Source: Nymphaea colorata
Lineage: Eukaryota
DNA: 64,000 nucleotides
Direction of reading: 5' to 3'
Assembly: GCF_008831285.2 (NCBI RefSeq)
Contig: NC_045138.2
Location: 5,766,001 to 5,830,000 of the forward strand
A program made the translations under genes and the position numbers. The notes below the pieces were generated by a model. That model was not told the origin of the DNA. It saw only the letters and a program-made list of their open reading frames with translations, and did not search any database. This document shows, piece after piece, positions 1,331-42,439 of the stretch. Every line of letters begins with the position of its first letter. Within the stretch, counting starts at the first letter, position 1.

Positions 1331-1680
1331 GAGAGATTTTGTCATTTATGCTTCAGTAGGTTGTCATACTGAGCAATCAGCCTGTCTGTGATACGTTGAT
1401 TTGGAGAATTATGAAATGATGTTACAGTTGTGTGAAGTACTTTTTGTATCATGAGCAGCACTCAGCAGTATAATGAACTTTATGTTTGTAATATCTAGAT
1501 TTATTTGTACAGGTTATAGAGATGCTAACTAGCATTTCTTCATTCTATTTTGGTTGTTTTGATATTCTGGCCAAACTTTATAAAGCATGAAAGTTCTTCT
1601 CCTTTCTGTTTTGAGAATTGATACCTTTGTATGACTTTGAATTTGTCCTTTTTATGTGTAATTGTAATTTTACTGTGCAG

Positions 1681-4600
1681 GGAACCTAAAGAGGCCAAAC
1701 CCTTTGAGTCATCTGCTTCTCAGAAGTCAACTCCCAGTGCATCAGATGACCCTTTTGTTATCTTAGAATCAAATTCAACACCACCTCAGTCCTCAGGGCT
1801 ATTCACTGATCCTCTTGAGCATATCAATATTCCCAGTAACTCGGGAAGCATGAAGGACTCTTTGTCCGCTAATGGCAGGTTTTTTCATGAGAATGATGTA
1901 TTTGATGGTTTTCCTAAAAGTGTGCCTGTATTTTCTTCTGAGAAGGAGAAAAACTCATCCACAACTGGACAACAAGGTGGTCCTGCACAGACTACTGCCA
2001 ACAAAGTTCAGAGTGATGAGAAATTTGGAAAGAAAATTTTTGAGAACAACATACAGAAAGACCATGGTAGCAATTTCAGGGATTTTCACCAAACTGTATT
2101 TGATGTCCCTGCTGGTTCATCTGATTCTCGTGAAACACATAATAAAAGTAGGAGCCGTTCTTCCCGTGTAAATTTAGAATCCTTTACACCAGAACCGGTT
2201 GTTTCTCCCAAGTCTGATGATAATGTGGAAGCTGCTGATGACATATGGCTTACAGTGGATGAAATTCCTCTTTTCACACAGCCTACAAATGCACCACCAC
2301 CTTCAAGGCCACCCCCATCACTCCCTACCAAAAGAACTACATCAAAAACTGAGAGGAGTGCTTCTTTTACTCCAGAAGCAAAAAGAAAGGACAATGAATA
2401 TTCATCTTTCCCTGCAACTTCTCAGCAACATTTCTCCCAGGGTGCTCCTGCTCCCACTCACATTTCAAGCACATCTCAAATTGATGAACTTGAAGATTTT
2501 GCTATGGGACGAAATCGGACTTACACTGATGGACCTGCGAATGACATGCCTACTGAAGAAGATTTGGAGGCCACTTCTGCTGCAGCTTCAGCAGCTGCAA
2601 TGAAGGAAGCAATGGAAATGGCTGAAGCAAAGATGAAGCAAGCCAAAGAAGCAAGAGAAAGAGATGCAAGGGCTGCTAAAAGTAGAGAATCTATAAGACC
2701 AGAAAGAGATGAGAAAGTTACTCTAGAGCGTGAAGAACAGGAGCAATGGGAAAAGCTAGAGCGTGAAAGAGAACAAAGAGAGAAGGAAGAAAAAGAGAGG
2801 GAGATGAAGAGACTTGAAAGAGAGAGAGAGCTTGAAAGAGAAAGGGAGAAGGCTGCAAGAATAGCAGTGGAGAGAGCAACCAGAGAAGCTCGTGAGCGCG
2901 CAGCTGCTGAAGCGCGCCAGCGTGCTGAGAGAGCTGCTGTTGAAAAGGCAGCTGCTGAAGCGCGTGAACGAGCAGCTGTTGAAGCACGCGACCGAGCAGC
3001 GAGAGTTGCTGCTGAAGCACGTGAACGATCAGCTGCAGAGGCCAGGGAACGTGCTGAGAGAGCTGCATTTGAAAGGGCAGCTGCTGAAGCACGTGAAAGA
3101 GCAAGTGCAGAGGCTAGAGAACGAGCTGAAAGAGCAACTGCTGAGGCAAGGGAACGAGAAGCGAGGGAGAGGGCAGCAGCAGAAGCGAGGGAGAGGGCTG
3201 CTGTAGAAAGGGCTGCTGCTGAGGCTAGGCAGAGGGCTGAGAGAGCAGCTGTAGAGAGAGCTTATGCTGAGGCCAGGGAAAGGGCTGCTGGGAGGGCTGC
3301 TGCTGCTGCCAGAGAGAAGCAGCAGCCAAAAACTGAACCTGACTTGGACTCCTTCTTTGGTATGGGTTCTCGGCCTACCAGTGCACCAAAGCAGCGGACC
3401 CCTACTGTGGTGAGGGATATGTATAAGTATCTTTATCTATGTAATGAAGTAACTTCTGATGATTTTTCTCAGCTAATCTGTTAAGTTGCACATTGTAGGA
3501 GAGCTTTTTTGATACTCAATCTCAGAAGAGGGGAGCTTCAACAACACCATCCACAGCAGCAACTACAATGAGAAAAGCATCATCAACGACAAACATAGCA
3601 GATGACTGGACTTCCTTATTTGGAGGTAGTGATGTTTACCAAATATCATCTTATCTCAACATTTTTTAGCGTGAATTCATTCTCATGTTCGCTAAACTTT
3701 TTCTCTGTTGGCCCCTTCAGCCGCACCATCTTCAGGAGAATTTCAGGAGATAGATGGTGAAAGTGAAGAAAGGAGAAAAGCTAGATTTGAACGACATCAA
3801 CGTACACTTGAGCGTGCTGTAAGTTTACCAATTATGATTCTTCATTGTGGTCTTTCCTGGCTGAGCATTTAAGAAACCTACCGACTCCCAAGCAGGGTGA
3901 GAACAAATCCAATCTGTATCTTGCAACTGCTCTTGTCTCAGACTTGGCTTGTTTTTTGTGCAGGCAAAAGCTCTGGCAGAGAAAAATGAAAGAGACATGC
4001 AAACTCAGAAGGAACAAGCAGAAAGACATGTAAGATAGCAAATGCTTGCATCAAGCTGTCTTAGATTCTAATATTATGGGAAACCATTTATTATTCTCAT
4101 TATTATACATTTAGTCTAGCTTTTTTCAAAGCATGTACTAGTGTCTTCATGCTTATTATTTATTCGGAGAAGAATCCTTCTCTAGAACTTGCATTCATTT
4201 ATAACATGCTTCTTATATGCTTTCTTCGTGATTCAGATGATTGCAGAAAAGCTGGATCCTGAGATTAAGCGATGGGCTGCAGGAAAAGAAGGAAACTTAC
4301 GTGCCTTGTTGTCAACATTACAATATGTGAGCTTATCCTGGTCCCTTAGCAACACTTTGTTGTTTCAATTGCGAACTGTTTTTTTTTTCTTTTTTTTATT
4401 CTTAGTATTTTCTAAGATGGTGCTTTGATGTTAGCTGCATCTGTGAGTTGTATGGTACCAAGGCCTTTTGAAATCTATAGAATCTATCTGCTAGATGCTA
4501 CTTGTCACAGATTTTGCAATGTATGGCCATTGATATCTTACCAATTGGCTAAAAATATTTTAGAGCGTTGCGGTATATGCAATCATCACAGAATAAACTG

Positions 4601-17700: not shown

Positions 17701-20700
17701 ACATGCTCTATTTGGATGGTGACCACTTCTTGGACACTGGTGGATCATGCTGGCTTTCTCATGCACTATCCGTGGTAACTTAGCTATTTCTCATTCGTTG
17801 CAAATTCATTTGAACGTCTTAGTTTTAGTTACATCTTGGGTTAGATCTCCATTATTTTGTTCTGGATGCTCCAAAGTTTTACTTATATAAGAAGCTGTGA
17901 TGCTTACTTTATCTTAAATTTCTAACTTTTTGTGATGCTAACTATATGTCTGGGCCCATTGTTTTCCTATGAGAAAGCTTGCCACAGCTTTCATATTTTT
18001 GAAAGTGGTGGTCACCTGCCAAAAGTTACTGTTTTCAGTTAATCTTGTTTTACTAACAGGCTTCCTTTGTTGTCACACTCCTCAAGGATTTAAAATGTTG
18101 GTTTTCTCTTTATCATATTGGCTCCTCGTAGACAAACATAATGAATCTGCACCAGATTGCTTTCAGGTGGTTTCTTCATGATTTAAGAATTATAGTTTTA
18201 TTTATTTGGATTCTCTCTTCCCTCTTCTTTTGAGACAAAGCTTGCTCCTCACATTTTGGAAAGTGGTGGTTGTCTTGGTACCTGTTTCCTGCAAAAGGTT
18301 AACTGTTTTAACTTTTTAGTTAATATTGTTTTAGCAGGAGGCTTGCTTTGTTTTTGCACTCCGTAAGGATTTGAAATGTTTGTTTGCTCTTTGATCATTA
18401 GTTGGCTTCTCATAGACAAACTTAACGAATCTGCACCAGATTGCTTTCTGATGGTTCCGTTGGCATGATTTAGGAATTATAACTTTTGTTTTGGATTCTC
18501 TCACTCTCTCTCTCTTTTCCTATGATACAAAGGTTGCCATATTTGTCACATTTAGAGGATTGGTAGTCATGTTCATATCTGTTCCCTGCCAAAGGTTAGC
18601 TATTTTCAGCTAATCTTTGTTAATAGTGGGCTTGCATTGCTTTCATACTTCTCAAGGATTTAAAATGCTGGTTTTCACTTTAATGATTGATTGGGTCCTC
18701 ACAGACAAGCATACTGAATCTGCACTATATCGCCTTTTGAGGGTTCCTTTAGTGGTTCTCTCTCTCTCTATGAGAAAAGGCTTGCCATATCTGTCACTTT
18801 TGGAAATGGTGGTCATGCTGATAATCTGTTCCCTGCCAAAGGTCAACTGTTTTCAGTCAATTTATAGCAAGCTTGCTTTCTTTGACTCTTCAAGTATTTA
18901 AAATGTTTGTTTGCTCCTTGATCCTTGATTCACTCCTCATAAACAAGCACAATCTATCCCCATCAGATTGCTGCCGATTGTTCCTTTAGCATGATCTAAA
19001 ATTATAGCTTTTTATTTGGATTCATTTAATTGACCTACTTAAAGTTTACAATGCTGACATAGTATGTCTTTTGTCAACAGGCTGAAGCGATCCTTTGTTC
19101 AGATTGCTTTCATGATGGGAAATTCATTGTTGGCAATTCAAGTATAGATTTTTTGAAGGTGGATGCAGTAAAAGATTCAAATGATCTTGATAGTGACACC
19201 TGGACTGACCATGAGACACTTTTGTTGCTTGAGGCATTAGAAATTCACAATGACAATTGGAATGAAATTGCAGAGCATGTTGGGACAAAATCAAAAGCAC
19301 AGTGTATTCTTCAGTTTGTTCGTCTGCCTATGGAGGATTGTTTTCTCGAAAGTATTGAGTTTCCTACCTCAGTGTTTTCGTCTGATATTGCCAAAGAAGG
19401 AAGCAGAACTAAGTTTCCAATGGCCAATGGAGACTCTTTAGGTACTTGGATGTTTTACTTTTTTCTGATTTAATTTATTAAATGACGAGGTCATCCTTAC
19501 TGAATCCTTCACATTTCATGTCCATGACCATTTCTTGTGTGTGAATGGGGTTTCAGCTTGTCACCACGAGGAGGTCGATTCTGAAGGTCGTCTCCCTTTT
19601 GCAAATTCTGGCAATCCACTTATGTCTGTGGTAGGTCTTTATGTCCCTTCTTGTGTCTGTCATCTATATTTTCTGCCAACAGAATTTATCTTAGACAAAA
19701 ACTTGAACCAGGGTATATATTATTTTATTGTTCTAAGTTGTTTTTTTTTTCTTACTTTTTTTTATAAGAAGGAATTTGTGCAGTAAGAAGCTAACTTTTT
19801 CTTCCTTCAACATCATTGTTTTCCTGAATTAGATCCTTATCTGACAACATCAGTCTATAATGAAGTTAGGCGATTAAGCTATTATCCAACATGGAACAGT
19901 TATAGAAAAAAATTGAAGTAGAGGACTATGCTTCCAAAGTTTTTAATGTCAAAACTTCAAGGATTAAAAATAATAAATGGCAAAATTTAATGAACCTATG
20001 AGTCATTTGACAACACTAGTCTTGCGGAAAGTGAGTTATTGTACATCTGTCTGTAGATTGTGGACATACTTGTGGTTGATTGCATCAACATGGTTTACAT
20101 TGAATTTGGCTAGTCAGAATTTGCATCAGGACCTCCTTAAGTTGCCGTTGTGTATGTAGCAGGTGGGCTACCACTTTGACTGGTCTTTACCAATTCATTG
20201 TTAGCAACATGAATCTCACAGTGGAAAAAGGAAAATAAAATATTCATTTATAGGCTGTGCGATTATCTATTTGTGATGACCAAATATCCTATTTGATAGC
20301 TCAATGTTTTCATGCAACATGTTTGTGCTAGATAAAGGAGGTGAATGTTCAAAACTTCAATGATCTAGATCTTTAACGACAAAAAGGCTTCATAAATATA
20401 TGTTGAAACCTCCCTCTTCTTTCTTCAACAAACACCTGCATTTTAGGACGACAATTCCAAGATGTAAAATAGGAAAATATGTTGCTTAAATTGGTTTTGA
20501 TAAGAGATATGAAGAAAGGAGATAACAACATACAACAGAAACAAAAAGAAGTACTAGATAAATGCATTACAGAGAAATCGAGAACAATAGTTATTCATCT
20601 CAGATATCGTCAGATATGCTGCTTCTTGTTGTTTTTATCCTTTTCATCTTGGGACAGTCCTTTTTCTCTGCATTGAGGCTCTGTATGCAGGAGCTTGATC

Positions 20701-35381: not shown

Positions 35382-35821
35382 TGTTGGGATTTCTTCCCAT
35401 AGCGCATATACAAAACCAAATGTATATACTCTAAGCAGGATCATGCTCATGCTAAATCATTGAAATAAACGAAACCTTAAACTGAAGCGGAAGCGTACCT
35501 GAATCCATCTGATCTTTCAGGGTACGTGCGGTGCGCGTGAGGTCTCTCTCAGATGGGGAAGAGAAAACCCTAGAAACCAAAAGCAACTGTTCGCACGACC
35601 CCAGGGACCACTACCATTATATAATGAGGACAATTACAGATTCAACCCATCAAAGAGTCCGTAATTGCGTATTGGTATCTATACATTTCAAAATTACCCC
35701 ATACCATCTAAAATGACGTAATATCCCAAAATGCAATCACTTAAGCGGATATTTACGTTAAGACAGCCATAATGTCTGAAATTCCTCATAGACATATGCC
35801 GGCCCACCAAATGATCTTACA
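35382..35821 (-). repeat. 3' LTR (440 bp)
   Basis: Copy of the 5' LTR with about 10 transitions (counted by eye) and a 28-bp deletion; adjacent to the PPT. Confidence 0.95.
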
Positions 35822-36215: not shown

Positions 36216-38283
36216 CTAAACCAGCACATCATCTAAGGATAACACCCCCATATGAACAACATGTTCATGAAAGACCTTAGGTGTTAAACCCTTGGTAAGC
36301 GGATCCGCAATCATAGAGTTTGTCCCAATATGCTCTAAAGACACCTGACCATTCTGTATCCCCTTTTTAACAGTCCAAAAACTTAATGTCGATGTGCTTC
36401 GACTTTGACAAACTGTGGCTGTTATAAGAGTACATAACTGCTGAATTATTGTCACACAATAACCTTAGTGGTCTTTCTACACCATTCATAATGCGCAGCC
36501 CCGTGACAAAATTCCGCAACCACAAAGCATGATTGGATGCCTCGTAACATGCTATGAATTATGCTGCCATAGTTGAAGTAGCTACAAGTGTCTGTTTGAC
36601 ACTTTTCCATGATATAGCTCCTCCAGCCAACAGAAATACATAGCCTGAAATAGACTTGCGACTGTCTTGGCATCCAGCAAAGTCAGAATCTGAATACCCA
36701 ATGATCTCCAACTGGTCTGATTTCTTGTATGTGAACATAAAATCTTTTGTTCTTTGTAAGTATCTCAATACTCTTTTGGCTGTTTTCCAATGATCCATAC
36801 CTGGATTACTTAAGTATCTGCCTAACATTCCCACGATAAACGCAATATCCGGACGAGTACAAACCTGAGCATACATAAGGCTTCCCACAACAGACGAATA
36901 GGGAATCCTTTCTATTTCCTTAGATTCGATTTCACTTTTAGGGCACTGTTTGAGACTAAACTTGTCTCCTTTAGTAACTGGAGTATCTCTTGGTTTACAA
37001 TCCTTCATGCCATATCGCTGAAGCACCTTATCAATGTAGGTCTTTTGTGATAATCCAAGAATACCCCGAGAACGATCTCGAAATATTTGGATTCCTAATA
37101 CAAAAGATGCATAACCAAGATCCTTCATGTCAAACTTTGATGACAAAAATTTCTTAGTTTCATGTAATGTGCCCACATCATTACTCGCCAGCAATATATC
37201 ATCGACATATAGAACCAGAAAGATAAATTTACCCCTACTGAACTTATGGTACACACATTCATCAACCATATTGGTCTCAAAGCCAAATGAAACTATAGCT
37301 TGATGAAATTTGTAATACCATTGACGGGAAGCTTGCTTTAGCCCATAGATAGATTTCTTAAGTTTGCAAACCATTTTCTTTGCATTTCCTGAAGCAAAGT
37401 TTTCTAGTTGCACCATATATATTGTTTCATCAATGTCTCCATTTAGAAACGCTGTCTTAACATCCATCTGATGCAGCTCTAAGTCAAAATGAGCCACAAG
37501 TGCCATTATGGTCCTGAAAGAGTCTTTCGACGAAACTGGAGAGAAAGTCTCTGTATAATCAATGCCTTCCTTTTGAGTAAAGCCCTTTGCAACAAGACGT
37601 GCCTTATACATTTCGATGTTTCCTAATGAATCCCTCTTGGTTTTAAATATCCATTTACAACCAATGGGTTTCACACCTTCAGGCAAGGGAACAACATCCC
37701 ATACGTCATTGTCCATCATGGACTTTATTTCCTCACTCATGGCATCTATCCACTTATGAGATTTAGAACTCTTTATTGCTTGCTGGAAGTTAATAGGATC
37801 ATCTTCCATTAAGCCCATATCAACATCATGTTCTTGGAGATCGACAAAATCATTTGAAATTGTATTTCTCCTCTCTCTAATGAATCTCCTCAGTGGCACT
37901 TCTACTTGATTTTCTTGAGGTTGTTGAGTTTGTTCTTCAGTATGGAGATCGACATCATTGCCTTCTTCTGAATATGTTGATGAAACAATTGCAGGAATGA
38001 ATACCTGACTGTTGCTTACAACACCTGTATGAGTGGACTCAGGTCCATCTTCAAAGGCAATGTTTCTAACCTGATCACCTCCCCCAAACTCAATATCCTC
38101 AAAGAAATGGGCATTTCCCGTTTCAAAGAAAGACTTACTGGATGGATTATAAAACTTATAACCCCTTGACCTTTCAGAATACCCAACAAAGTAACAGCTA
38201 ACCGTCTTAGAGTCCAGTTTTCTTTCGCTTGGCCTATATGGCTTTGCTTCAACTGGACATCCCCAAATATGAAAATATCTCAT
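36216..38283 (-). pseudogene. Copia integrase C-terminus, reverse transcriptase and RNase H (nonsense codon and frameshift in RNase H)
   Basis: FHIWGC..CYFVGYSE; RT KARLVAKGFTQKEGIDY, QMDVKTAFLNG, LYVDDILL; RH GYSDSDFAG..ISWKS. TAA at 36559-36561 falls where a Glu codon is expected, and a frameshift near 36378 precedes MIADPLTKGL. Confidence 0.92.
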
Positions 38284-38437
38284 ACTAGGCGTTTTGCCTG
38301 TCCCAAATATGAAAATGTCTCATACTCAGGTCCATTTTCTTTCGCCCGCCCGCCTGCGTGCTGTGTTCGGTTTTTGGACCGGGTCGGGTCCTGTCGGACC
38401 CGACTCGTATCCATGCGGTTTAATTTTAAAGAAACGG

Positions 38438-39944
38438 CTTTAATCATTTTGCCTAATTGATTCTCAACTTCGGCTTTAAATGACTTGAAAACGTCTAAGG
38501 ATTGAGACTTCTCATGAATCAAATACAGGTAACCATAACGAGAATAATCGTCTATGAACATGATAAAATACTGTTGTCCATTCCAACAAGCCGTAGGGAA
38601 TGGACCACAAACATCCGTATGAATCAGTTCTAAGACGTCTGAAGCTCTACTTGCACCTGTTTTCTTAATGTTTATTCGTTTTCCCTTTATACATTCTATG
38701 CAAACATTAAAGTCTGCAAAATCAAGGGACCCAAGAATTCCATTTGACATAAGCCTTCTTATTCTCTTTTCAGAGATATGTCCTAAGCGCCTATGCCATA
38801 ACATAGCAAAATTCTCATTGGCTAATTGTCCTTTAGTACCACTGGATGTAACATGCAAGGTCTCATGATATGAAGCAACTGTATCAAGCAAATAGAGGTT
38901 ATCGCTACTAGATAAAGAACCAGTGACAATCAAATTTGAATGCAGAAACAACTTGAATTTATTTCCTCCAAAAGAACAATAGTAACCAAATTTGTCCAAT
39001 GAGGAAATAGAAACTAGATTCCGTCTAAAAGACGGCACCACATAAGTTTCTGTCAAATTCAAATAACAACCAGTCTTTAACAATAACCGAAAATCTGCTA
39101 TGGCTTCAACTTTTGCCTTCTTGCCATCGCCCACATAGATGAATCTTTCAGCATCATTTGACGTTCGACAATTTAGGCAGTCTTGCATAGAGACACTTAT
39201 GTGAGTAATAGCACCTGAATCTACCCACCAAGTGTTTCCGGGTACTGAAGTTAAATTAACCTCAGAACAAAACAAAGTGAGAAGTGTATCATTCTTTTCA
39301 CGCCATGCGTGAAACTTAGTACAATCCTTCTTTATATGACCTTTACCCTTACAAAAGAAGCAGCCTAAAAGGCCTTCCTTATGCTTCTTCTGTTTCTTAA
39401 CGGATGATTGGTCAATGGCAACTTCTATAACTGTCTTTCTTTTCTTACTTATAAGAATCGAATCATTTATCTCAATAATAGTACTCAAATTTGCAAATAT
39501 CATGGAAACAGAACTCACTGTATAAAGAACAAACCAAAATACCAAACATGCTCACAATCAATACATGTACAAAGATGAAATAACAAATATAAATGAATTT
39601 AAACATAATGGCCCAAAACCCATCACAAGGTACCGGTGCAACGCTAATATCCAATCTTTGGATTGAAATATTAACTGCAAGTGGCATTCTTGGTCAACAA
39701 TGAATATAGATAATTAACCCTGTCAAACAACGAACCTATCTTTGGATTGACTCGCTATTCACATGGAAAGCTGAAAAATTATCACACATTCATTGCCCTG
39801 TATACTTAAACCTGACCAAACAACAATCCTCCTTTGGGCTGATCATTGTTCGCATGGATCAAGTATACTATCATCTAATATTTAAAACAAGCAAATTCGT
39901 ACAACAGAGGTCACTTTGGCGACATAAAATACAAACTTACTCAT
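38438..39944 (-). pseudogene. Copia gag (internally deleted), protease and N-terminal integrase; putative intron 39518-39940
   Basis: Zinc knuckle CFFCKGKGHIKKDC, protease WWVDSGAITH, GAG-pre-integrase LWHRRLGHIS, integrase LELIHTDVCGPF..FIDDYSRYGY. The integrase breaks off at KMIKAV (38437). ATGA|GTAAGT donor and TTTATACAG acceptor give an in-frame start. Confidence 0.85.
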
Positions 39945-40099
39945 TTCAAACAACAGACATAGCTAAAGATCAAATTCATAATCCAAACATTCATCTAAAG
40001 CACATACACAATTTGCCCAATATTGAATCCAAAACCAAATGATTCAATGATATGGGCCCAAAAGAGACCAAAATTTTATAAACCGATACCATAATTGTG

Positions 40100-40600
40100 T
40101 TTAAGTGGGTCAAGAACCACTGAATCGGCCTTAAAGTGGCCCTTATCGTTCTTAAACCGCAACTAGAACACCCACATGCCCCTAAATAGAGCTGAACCGG
40201 TCAAAAATTGGACAAACCGGTCAAAAAATAGACCGTATCGGTTCTAAAACCCACTGAACTGGTTAAAAATGGCTAAAAAACGGTTCCAGAACTCAATGAA
40301 CCGGTCTGAAAATGCCCGAATCGGTTCGAAAATCAACTTAATCAGTTCTGAAATGCTAGAATCGGTTCTAAAACTGAATGAACCGGTTCTGAAAAGCCCT
40401 GAATCTGTCCGAATCGGTTCTCAAATGAATGAACCGGTCCCAAAATGGTTCGAATCGGATCTGAAAGGTCCGAACCGGTCCCTAGAAGGTCCGAACCGGT
40501 CTGAATCAGATTGAATCGGTTTTGAATCGGATTGAACCGGTCTGAAATCGAATGAACCGGTTCGAGTCTTTTCCAAAACCGGTTTAAAAAATGAACCGTT
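40100..40600. repeat. Degenerate GAACCGGT/GAATCGGT minisatellite in the copia 5' leader
   Basis: Many copies of the gaa(c/t)cgg(t) motif at roughly 10-22 bp spacing. Confidence 0.8.
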
Positions 40601-40865
40601 TCTTTAAAATTAAACCGCATGGATACGAGTCGGGTCCGACAGGACCCGACCCGGTCCAAAAACCGAACACAGCACGCAGGCGAGCGGGCGGAAGAAAATG
40701 GACCTGAGTATGAGACATTTTCATATTTGGGATAGGCAAAACGCCTAGTATGAGACATTTTCATATTTGGGGATGTCCAGTTGGAGCAAAGCCATATAGA
40801 CCAAGCAAAAGAAAACTGGACTCTAAGACGGTTAGCTGTTACTTTGTTGGGTATTCTGAAAGGTC

Positions 40866-41461
40866 AAGGGGTTATAAGTTTTATAATCCATCCAGTAAGT
40901 CTTTCTTTGAAACGGGAAATGCCCATTTCTTTGAGGATATTGAGTTTGGGGGAGGTGATCAGGTTAGAAACATTGCCTTTGAAGAGGGACCTGAGTCCAC
41001 TCATACAGTTGTTGTAAGCAACAGGTATTCATTCCTGCAATTGTTTCATCAACATATTCAGAAGAAGGCAATGATGTCGATCTCCATACTGAAGAACAAA
41101 CTCAACAACCTCAAGAAAATCAAGTAGAAGTGCCACTGAGGAGATCCATTAGAGAGAGGGACTCCTCTCTCTAATGGATCTCCTCAGTGGCACTTCTACT
41201 TGATTTTCTTGAGGTTGTTGAGTTTGTTCTTCAGTATGGAGATCGACATCATTGCCTTCTTCTGAATATGTTGATGAAACAATTGCAAGAATGAATACCT
41301 GACTGTTGCTTACAACACCTGTATGAGTGGACTCAGGTCCCTCTTCAAAGACAATGTTTCTAACCTGATCACCTCCCCCAAACTCAATATCCTCAAAGAA
41401 ATGGGCATTTCCCGTTTCAAAGAAACACTTATTGGATAAATTATAAAACTTATAACCCCTT
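40866..41461. repeat. ~295-bp-arm inverted repeat (4-nt loop) of integrase sequence inside the copia 5' leader
   Basis: 40866-41159 is the reverse complement of 41164-41461, with loop GACT; 41162-41461 is also a direct copy of 37868-38167. Confidence 0.95.
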
Positions 41462-41957
41462 TTCTTACCGATTTTGTGTGTTGCAGCGGCGACGAAGCCA
41501 CCGGCGGGCCGCCGGAGACCGTGGGTGGGTGCCTGAGGGTCGCACGGCCCTGTCCGGCGACAGGTAAGTCGCCGGCAGGCCTTTGACCGATGTCGCCCTC
41601 CCTGCCGTCGCCCTTTCCCTACCTCTTTTCTTCAATGGCTGCGACGGACGAAAAGGTGTTCACCTGCAGGCCACCCAACAGCGTGGGTGGCCGCTGGTGG
41701 GTCGCGCTAGGACGGCTGGAAGCCGTCCGTCGCCTTCCGGCGACAGTCGCCCGCCTAAAACCTGCCGTCCCTTACGCCATACCCTCTGCATCCTTAGGCG
41801 GCTGCAGCGGAAGCCCGACGACTTCCGTTGCTTCCCACGCCAATTTTGTTTTTTTTTTTTTTGAAAAACTTGCAGCCGAAGAACCAAATGAGGAACATCC
41901 GAACGGGAAACAACGCACAAAATCATCCAAAAATCAATGATTTAACGAAGAACATAG

Positions 41958-41969
41958 GCTCTGATACCA
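41958..41969 (-). promoter_or_regulatory. Primer binding site complementary to initiator tRNA-Met
   Basis: TGGTATCAGAGC on the - strand, 2 nt after the 5' LTR. Confidence 0.93.
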
Positions 41970-41971
41970 AA

Positions 41972-42439
41972 TGTTGGGATTTCTCCCCATAGCGCATATA
42001 CAAAACCAAACGTATATACCCTAAACAGGATCATGCTCATGCTAAATCATTGAAATAAACGAAACCTTAAACTGAAGCAGAAGCGTACCTGAATCCATCT
42101 GATCTGGTGCACAGGAAGATCGCAGCAGGGTCTTCCAGGGTACGTGCGGTACGCGTGAAGTCTCTCTCAGATGGGGAAGAGAAAACCCTAGAAACCAAAA
42201 GCAACTGTTCGCACGACCCCAGGGACCACTACCATTATATAATGAGGACAATTACGGATTCAACCCATCAAAGAGTCCGTAATTGCGTACTGGTATCTAT
42301 ACATTTCAAAATTACCCCATACCATCTAAAATGACGTAATATCCCAAAATGCAATCACTTAAGCGGATATTTACGTTAAGACAGCCATAATGTCTGAAAT
42401 TCCTCATAGACATATGCCGGCCCACCAAATGATCTTACA
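41972..42439 (-). repeat. 5' LTR (468 bp)
   Basis: TGTTGGGAT...GATCTTACA on the + strand; direct repeat of 35382-35821; adjacent to the PBS. Confidence 0.95.

Follow-up and report, generated by a model that had tools for sequence, protein, structure and literature searches.

The window analysed here, a stretch of 64,000 nt from the Nymphaea colorata genome, carries on its minus strand a copia retrotransposon with two LTRs (TG...CA), a 5-bp target-site duplication and a primer-binding site (PBS), the structural hallmarks of Ty1/copia elements. Profile matches to zf-CCHC, Pol_BBD, gag_pre-integrs, SH3 and RVT_2 follow the Ty1/copia order of gag, protease, integrase and RT. An autonomous element would have an intact gag-pol frame with a capsid domain, and none was found; the pol part is split over two frames and interrupted by an internal stop, and its integrase region is rearranged. 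By these sequence features we classify the element as a decayed plant Ty1/copia retrotransposon. Its main parts are as follows.

42444–42440 and 35381–35377: target-site duplication CTTTT
41972–42439, minus strand: 5' LTR with TG...CA ends
42235–42241, minus strand: TATA-like box, putative promoter element
41958–41969, minus strand: primer-binding site TGGTATCAGAGC
40596–41461: rearranged insert, direct and inverted integrase-region copies with a 138-bp palindrome
39450–39458, minus strand: break point, capsid-coding part of gag missing
36559–39517, minus strand: remains of gag-pol, split over two frames (zinc knuckle, protease-region, pre-integrase, SH3, RT)
35382–35821, minus strand: 3' LTR, 27 nt shorter than the 5' LTR and otherwise about 98% identical to it

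The PBS at 41969 is, to judge from its motif, presumably of the tRNA-Met type, and on the basis of protein motifs we tentatively place the element in the Ikeros lineage. The tRNA-Met PBS, the single ORF, the 5-bp target-site duplication and the length of about 6.9 kb agree with the entry for Ikeros in the REXdb table, but they are not diagnostic since Angela, Tork, Ale and Ivana share them. The PBS type and the single-ORF layout exclude Bianca, our first guess, which has a half-tRNA-Ile PBS and split ORFs, as well as TAR, which is self-priming. No relatives were found among the viral contigs scanned. It should be mentioned that integrase-region copies, both direct and inverted, are located at 40596–41461 and 37868–38437, with the 138-bp palindrome at 41022–41301; inverted copies in the leader would yield long double-stranded RNA, a possible source of siRNA. 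The leader also contains degenerate repeats with 41-nt spacing (40278–40565) that are rich in AACCGGTT and vary among relatives.

At the start of gag lies the following feature.

39518–39560, minus strand: U-rich tract and conserved phase-1 acceptor TACAG

The U-rich tract ends in TTTATACAG, and the acceptor proposed there by the initial annotation is well supported by comparison with related plant elements (the best 80 of 252 loci, from metagenome contigs). A phase-1 YAG was found at the gag start in 54 of the 60 distinct loci with upstream DNA, a phase-0 one in 2 and a phase-2 one in 18. In seven loci the U content was 47–57% upstream of the acceptor versus 29–40% downstream, and the ORFs read from unspliced contigs of relatives mostly start with an intron-like translation that ends at the acceptor. 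As judged from these alignments, gag begins behind a genuine conserved 3' splice site at 39518. A Met codon between the acceptor and the first conserved motif was present in 21 of 43 loci and absent from the other 22, so that part of the Gag might be initiated independently of exon 1. The PF14223 capsid domain is present in nearly all full-length relatives; a profile search did not find it in the ORF joined at 39518.

Upstream of this acceptor, the initial annotation had placed the gag start codon and the donor inside a stem, at ATG 39944–39942 and at GTAAGT from 39940 on the minus strand. The letters are correct: donor and acceptor are 423 nt apart, in phase 1 and in frame with the 39551–38280 ORF, the arms 39950–39930 and 39901–39881 pair at 21 of 21 positions (six of them G-U), and a small uORF (MSVV and a stop) is present at 39960. 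The combination of ATG and donor is not beyond chance: among 2000 base-shuffled leaders, 29.6% had some ATG followed within four codons by a phase-1 GTRAG, and 1.85% had the exact ATGNGTAAGT; the stem is far beyond chance (-33.6 kcal/mol, z -7.4, reached by 0 of 200 shuffles). At the homologous place of this hairpin GTRAG was found in none of 41 distinct loci, a count that omits 2 loci lacking the loop, and ATG-N-GT in just 7 of the 41. The predicted RNA joint 39941–39517 was not among the joints listed in eight runs, whereas an LTR donor at 42089 is used in one of them, X21; reads of this run span 39819–40052, and no joint at 39941 is listed for it (threshold of 3 reads). Finally, 36 AUGs (18 without the insert) precede AUG 39944 in a leader that extends 2267 nt from the presumed cap.

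Thus, donor 39940 is probably not the one used, and in ATGA/GTAAGT the 5' arm of the hairpin happens to spell such a motif. The stem held up as a conserved RNA structure, but not as a device for hiding an AUG and a U1 site, since that site varies freely while the pairing is kept and no joint at it is listed. A separation of mRNA and genomic RNA by splicing is very likely, though probably not through the AUG and donor first proposed. That reading had left out that the stem is one of four, that the joined ORF has no capsid domain, and that the LTR contains an in-frame AUG with a donor.

The true partner exon of the acceptor likely lies in the 5' LTR, where the following features were located.

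42089–42098, minus strand: coding mini-exon ATG GAT TCA G in the LTR, phase 1, conserved, with a donor used in RNA-seq of relatives
42088, minus strand: donor GTACGC after the mini-exon
39518–42088, minus strand: proposed intron 1 (2571 nt here, insert included) with the LTR end, PBS, leader and hairpin array; both ends conserved, joint predicted from gene models

The mini-exon with its donor reads ATGGATTCAG followed by GT (42098–42089), and its phase matches that of acceptor 39518. The ATG at 42098 is the first AUG past the TATA box, no ATG being present between 30 nt behind the box and 42098. An ATG with a phase-1 donor was found 89–208 nt before the PBS in 12 of the 19 distinct loci in which the end of the 5' LTR is present; these represent about five families and not 19 independent cases. 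Among shuffles, it appeared in 65 of 2400 (2.7%). Seven loci failed the scripted test, three of which keep the donor with a changed ATG; in one locus (L050) the motif is visible by eye and was counted as a miss. The mini-exon takes a 10-nt form (MDS, MDP or MNP) or a 13-nt form (MANS), the latter in one family with an extra codon that preserves the phase. The same mini-exon motif is present in the 3' LTR (35508–35499).

No RNA set was listed as containing the stretch itself, the shares being 0.06–0.13. All reads that use the LTR donor stem from a single run, X21, of which about 6% was read, with 196 reads aligned and none at least 99% identical to the window copy. In this run the LTR donor at 42089 is connected to 39421 in 23 reads (19 distinct starts) and to 39415 in 16 (13 distinct starts). 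Both joints are in frame, and the 42089–39421 joint is bounded by GT..AG on the minus strand. The depth across the LTR donor falls from about 33 to 0.7, and 12 further reads leave the alignment at this point. The two acceptors are located here:

39415–39421, minus strand: two in-frame acceptors joined to the LTR donor in expressed relatives (RNA-seq), probably cryptic

In the loci listed, no conserved YAG or pyrimidine tract was found at 39421 or 39415, and a conserved Pol- or NC-only isoform made through them was on these grounds rejected for now. In the 42089 joints observed the capsid region is left out, and decayed copies may be their source. The canonical joint 42089–39517 was not among the joints listed in the eight runs; neither a 39941 nor a 42089 joint was found in X22 (108 reads) and X3, or among those listed, all but eight of the joints, for four Logan contig sets, which are possibly DNA and in which contigs drop rare forms. 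A 951-nt contig of X1 matches the gag-start side over 63 letters, up to the CAG common to the LTR exon and the acceptor, a weak hint that we kept out of the evidence. It should be mentioned that past the LTR donor (42088–42089) X21 reads run into mixed sequences absent from the stretch, which suggests splicing of this donor into other copies or host DNA.

Evidence bearing on the canonical joint comes from proteins of relatives, 12 of 100 of which start with M[DE][SPQ] or MANS exactly at the gag start. For example, the hop model XP_062088878.1 reads MDS/AVATVSAN versus MYCSIS/AVATVSAN in the unspliced P0158, the Lonicera model KAM7488859.1 reads MDS/ALMSTT versus MFSIS/ALMSTT in the unspliced P0186, and the clover model CAJ2635047.1 reads MANSNS/ATIAS versus ...VLNI/ATIAS in the unspliced P0144. 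A sister ORF that reads the intron at the gag-start point was found for hop, Lonicera, Henckelia and clover. The mulberry model MDS/VNTS and a second clover model, MDP/VAAATAP, also fit a start in the LTR exon, the latter matching the LTR exon of L069, while P0130, an ORF of a 1383-nt Logan contig, has both an MDS start and a spliced C-terminus. We infer the LTR origin of these starts from the motif. An MDS or MNS start is by itself no proof of splicing since in the DNA of some families (L060, L071; P0181, P0191) a similar in-frame ATG stands at the acceptor. The gene models, read as sequence, support the canonical LTR-to-39517 joint and do not prove it. The MNSA starts of Vitis were dropped as evidence, P0181 showing that ATG in an unspliced context. 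In the gag starts of L060, L067 and L071 and in P0191 and P0216 an in-frame ATG-GAY-xCA-G is located right at the acceptor and mimics the LTR mini-exon; it may stem from a spliced junction that was copied back into the element, or offer a way around splicing.

A further intron was found behind the zinc knuckle.

39183–39289, minus strand: intron 2, 107 nt; in relatives it shifts the frame of Gag to a stop; both its splice sites have diverged in the window copy

In relatives, its G/GT donor is present in 23 of 23 loci and its CAG acceptor in 8 of 23, in six of these eight at a length of 107 nt. A joint 39180–39292, which we interpret as intron 2, was seen in 5 reads and one contig, and 13 of 100 relative proteins carry the frameshifted spliced C-terminal tail. 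The relatives thus possess a post-gag intron frameshifting to a stop, of the type known from BARE1 and EVD.

In the 460 nt before the acceptor lie four long stems that all end in a C(CAAA)G loop.

39873–39958, minus strand: hairpin 1, the stem reported earlier, loop CCAAAG at 39919; holds the non-conserved ATGA/GTAAGT
39800–39868, minus strand: hairpin 2, loop CCAAAG at 39837
39696–39797, minus strand: hairpin 3, loop CCAAAG at 39745
39620–39695 (approximate ends), minus strand: hairpin 4, loop CCAAAG at 39661

The array was found again in relatives whose Gag segments are about 40–90% identical, with up to seven loops in loci of the L060 type, and the fold z was below -3 in 37 of 44 leaders (8 shuffles each). 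Changes on both sides were seen at 12 of 16 pairs of hairpin 2 (91.7% of cells paired, 18 hand-picked sequences) and at 10 of 22 pairs of hairpin 4 (94.3% paired, 16 sequences), counts that are inflated by kinship among the sequences and refer to structures derived from the same alignments. The covariation score of both hairpins was reached by 0 of 500 shuffles, and in slid controls their paired fraction went down to 27–47%. The frequent G-U variants suggest a structure formed in RNA of this strand. Hairpin 1 has a covarying 5-bp tip and, in most single folds, a long lower stem; for this lower stem RNAalifold gave no consensus structure, just the 5 apical pairs, as the arms slide between families. 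The last loop lies 100–190 nt upstream of gag in most leaders; the PBS-to-gag distance ranges from 770 to 2460 nt. A search of Rfam gave 9 weak matches, all below the gathering score, and pairing of the loops with the PBS was rejected since, by eye, the complement is not conserved. In X22, six reads, which may be duplicates, stop with an adapter-like tail at 39912, the tip of hairpin 1, where reverse transcriptase was perhaps arrested by the stem.

Together, the motifs, their phase and conservation, the covariation of the stems and, in RNA of relatives, splicing at the LTR donor and of intron 2 are established, and we consider it probable that in this lineage the Gag-Pol AUG lies inside the 5' LTR and that the donor 10 nt further on is spliced to 39518, with removal of the PBS and the hairpin array. 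Removal of intron 1 alone would yield a Gag-Pol mRNA, and removal of both introns an abundant Gag mRNA. Without the PBS and hairpins, these spliced RNAs would be translated and could not be primed for reverse transcription, while unspliced RNA would keep both and serve as the genome; from the LTR AUG it opens just an 18-codon frame. The array, which only unspliced RNA would carry and whose distance to the acceptor is kept, would bind a protein several times for packaging or export. We lean, with a little more than even confidence, to the hairpins being a multivalent binding site for a protein, by which unspliced RNA would be singled out for packaging or nuclear export. As packaging would operate in trans, gag-deleted copies such as the one in the window would be favoured.

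The same intron could also be subject to feedback, with Gag or a host protein on the four CAAA loops, which adjoin the branch point and acceptor, blocking intron-1 splicing and so tilting the balance from mRNA towards genome. The distance of the array is constant to the acceptor and not to the PBS, in X21 the LTR donor skips acceptor 39518, and the Logan ORF P0144 joins a spliced C-terminus to an intron-like N-terminus, consistent with retention of intron 1. However, the last loop is at least 100 nt from the AG, and the same spacing is expected of a packaging signal beside gag; we hold such a switch to be unlikely. Still less probable is that the LTR donor mainly recruits U1 to suppress the poly(A) site of the 5' LTR, with Gag-Pol translation starting at an internal Met of unspliced RNA and the splicing seen being a by-product in decayed copies. 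Foamy virus offers a precedent in the part of the report covered here (Schrom et al., 2013, PMC3694450), and the usable Met in 21 of 43 loci and the absence of the canonical joint from those listed in the eight runs agree with it; yet it does not account for an LTR exon that has kept its in-frame ATG and its phase, for the conservation of the phase-1 acceptor, for the 22 loci that lack this Met or for the MDS/MANS gene models. Such a U1/poly(A) role can coexist with a Gag-Pol start in the LTR.

The 423-nt intron bounded by AUG 39944 and donor 39940 within hairpin 1 has in its favour a perfect GTAAGT, in frame and within a stable stem, and 39940 might be a minor alternative donor in the window copy's own family, whose close copies fell outside the comparison. 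Against it are the missing GTRAG in all 41 loci, the many upstream AUGs in a long leader, and unspliced reads over the site with no joint listed; moreover, the PBS would stay in the mRNA. At the lineage level this intron is largely refuted, and we regard it as very improbable. Returning to the start codon in the LTR, a wider and rather doubtful proposition is that an entire copia lineage found throughout the flowering plants relies for all of its proteins on spliced RNA devoid of the PBS, with the PBS and the four-hairpin C(CAAA)G array in intron 1, and that Gag, once bound to the array, picks out the genome for packaging and at the same time stops intron-1 splicing. If true, the lineage would limit itself by a switch that makes packaging in trans obligatory and gives rise to non-autonomous parasites.

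AUGs within the LTR occur in Ty1 and Tto1, and foamy virus gag is made from unspliced RNA. A close parallel to split RNA pools is barley BARE1, for which the portion of the study covered here (Chang et al., 2013, PMC3735527) describes separate RNA pools for translation and replication and, after gag, an intron of 104 nt whose frameshift leads to a stop, compared with 107 nt here. The gag-defective BARE2 does not splice this gag-side intron, just as the gag-deleted window copy has lost both intron-2 sites. Unlike in the element described here, the two pools of BARE arise through a pair of TATA boxes and capping, and the gag AUG follows the leader, with no PBS-spanning intron described in that portion (PMC3735527). 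Arabidopsis EVD and other Ty1/copia elements of that plant similarly have a short spliced Gag mRNA and a U1-type donor behind gag; in the part of the work considered, their splice sites centre on protease and Gag-Pol comes from full-length unspliced RNA (Oberlin et al., 2017, PMC5580714), whereas here Gag-Pol would need splicing.

Sunflower Tyran/Varan form two-intron short isoforms with nucleocapsid and no capsid (Kirov et al., 2020, PMC7730604), comparable to the LTR-to-39421 joint with intron 2. The passages of that text covered mention no LTR AUG, PBS removal, conservation or hairpins, and Tyran/Varan may be a partial precedent, depending on the position of their first intron (PMC7730604). 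Foamy virus also has a splice donor in the LTR, at both ends, but it is a retrovirus and its donor governs the choice of poly(A) site, as far as the report was covered (PMC3694450). Structured cis-elements on unspliced RNA are likewise known as the RTE of IAP and the MTE of MusD; the covered part of the 2025 review that discusses them (PMC12786077) names just Ogre and EVADE as intron-bearing plant elements and states that RNA export of plant LTR retrotransposons has not been the subject of direct study.

In the full-text literature, which included few subscription papers and left figures and bioRxiv supplements outside its scope, we found no description of a PBS-removing intron, an LTR start codon or a CCAAAG array in a plant copia element. 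No PBS-removing intron appeared in the parts covered of papers on Cer1 (PMC10309623), triticale (PMC7765848) and Arabidopsis VLP (PMC7197481), and the literature search found no papers on the Tto1 leader. It is a long-standing problem how a retroelement allots a single transcript to both translation and reverse transcription, and the only plant answer documented in the literature covered, itself seen in part, is the two promoters of BARE (PMC3735527). A PBS-removing intron would give a second clean answer, and the covarying array of four hairpins offers a tangible candidate, open to mutation, for a packaging or export signal of a plant retrotransposon. In practical terms, reading gag of these elements as a plain ORF would place its start wrongly, and each solo or 3' LTR would bring a promoter, an AUG and a live donor able to splice into host genes.

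Two other observations were made elsewhere in the window. At 1622–3484 on the plus strand lies an open frame of 620 codons with A/E/R-rich repeats, which may resemble an exon of an auxilin-like host gene. At 18050–18983 a degenerate repeat of 240–290 nt is present in four copies.
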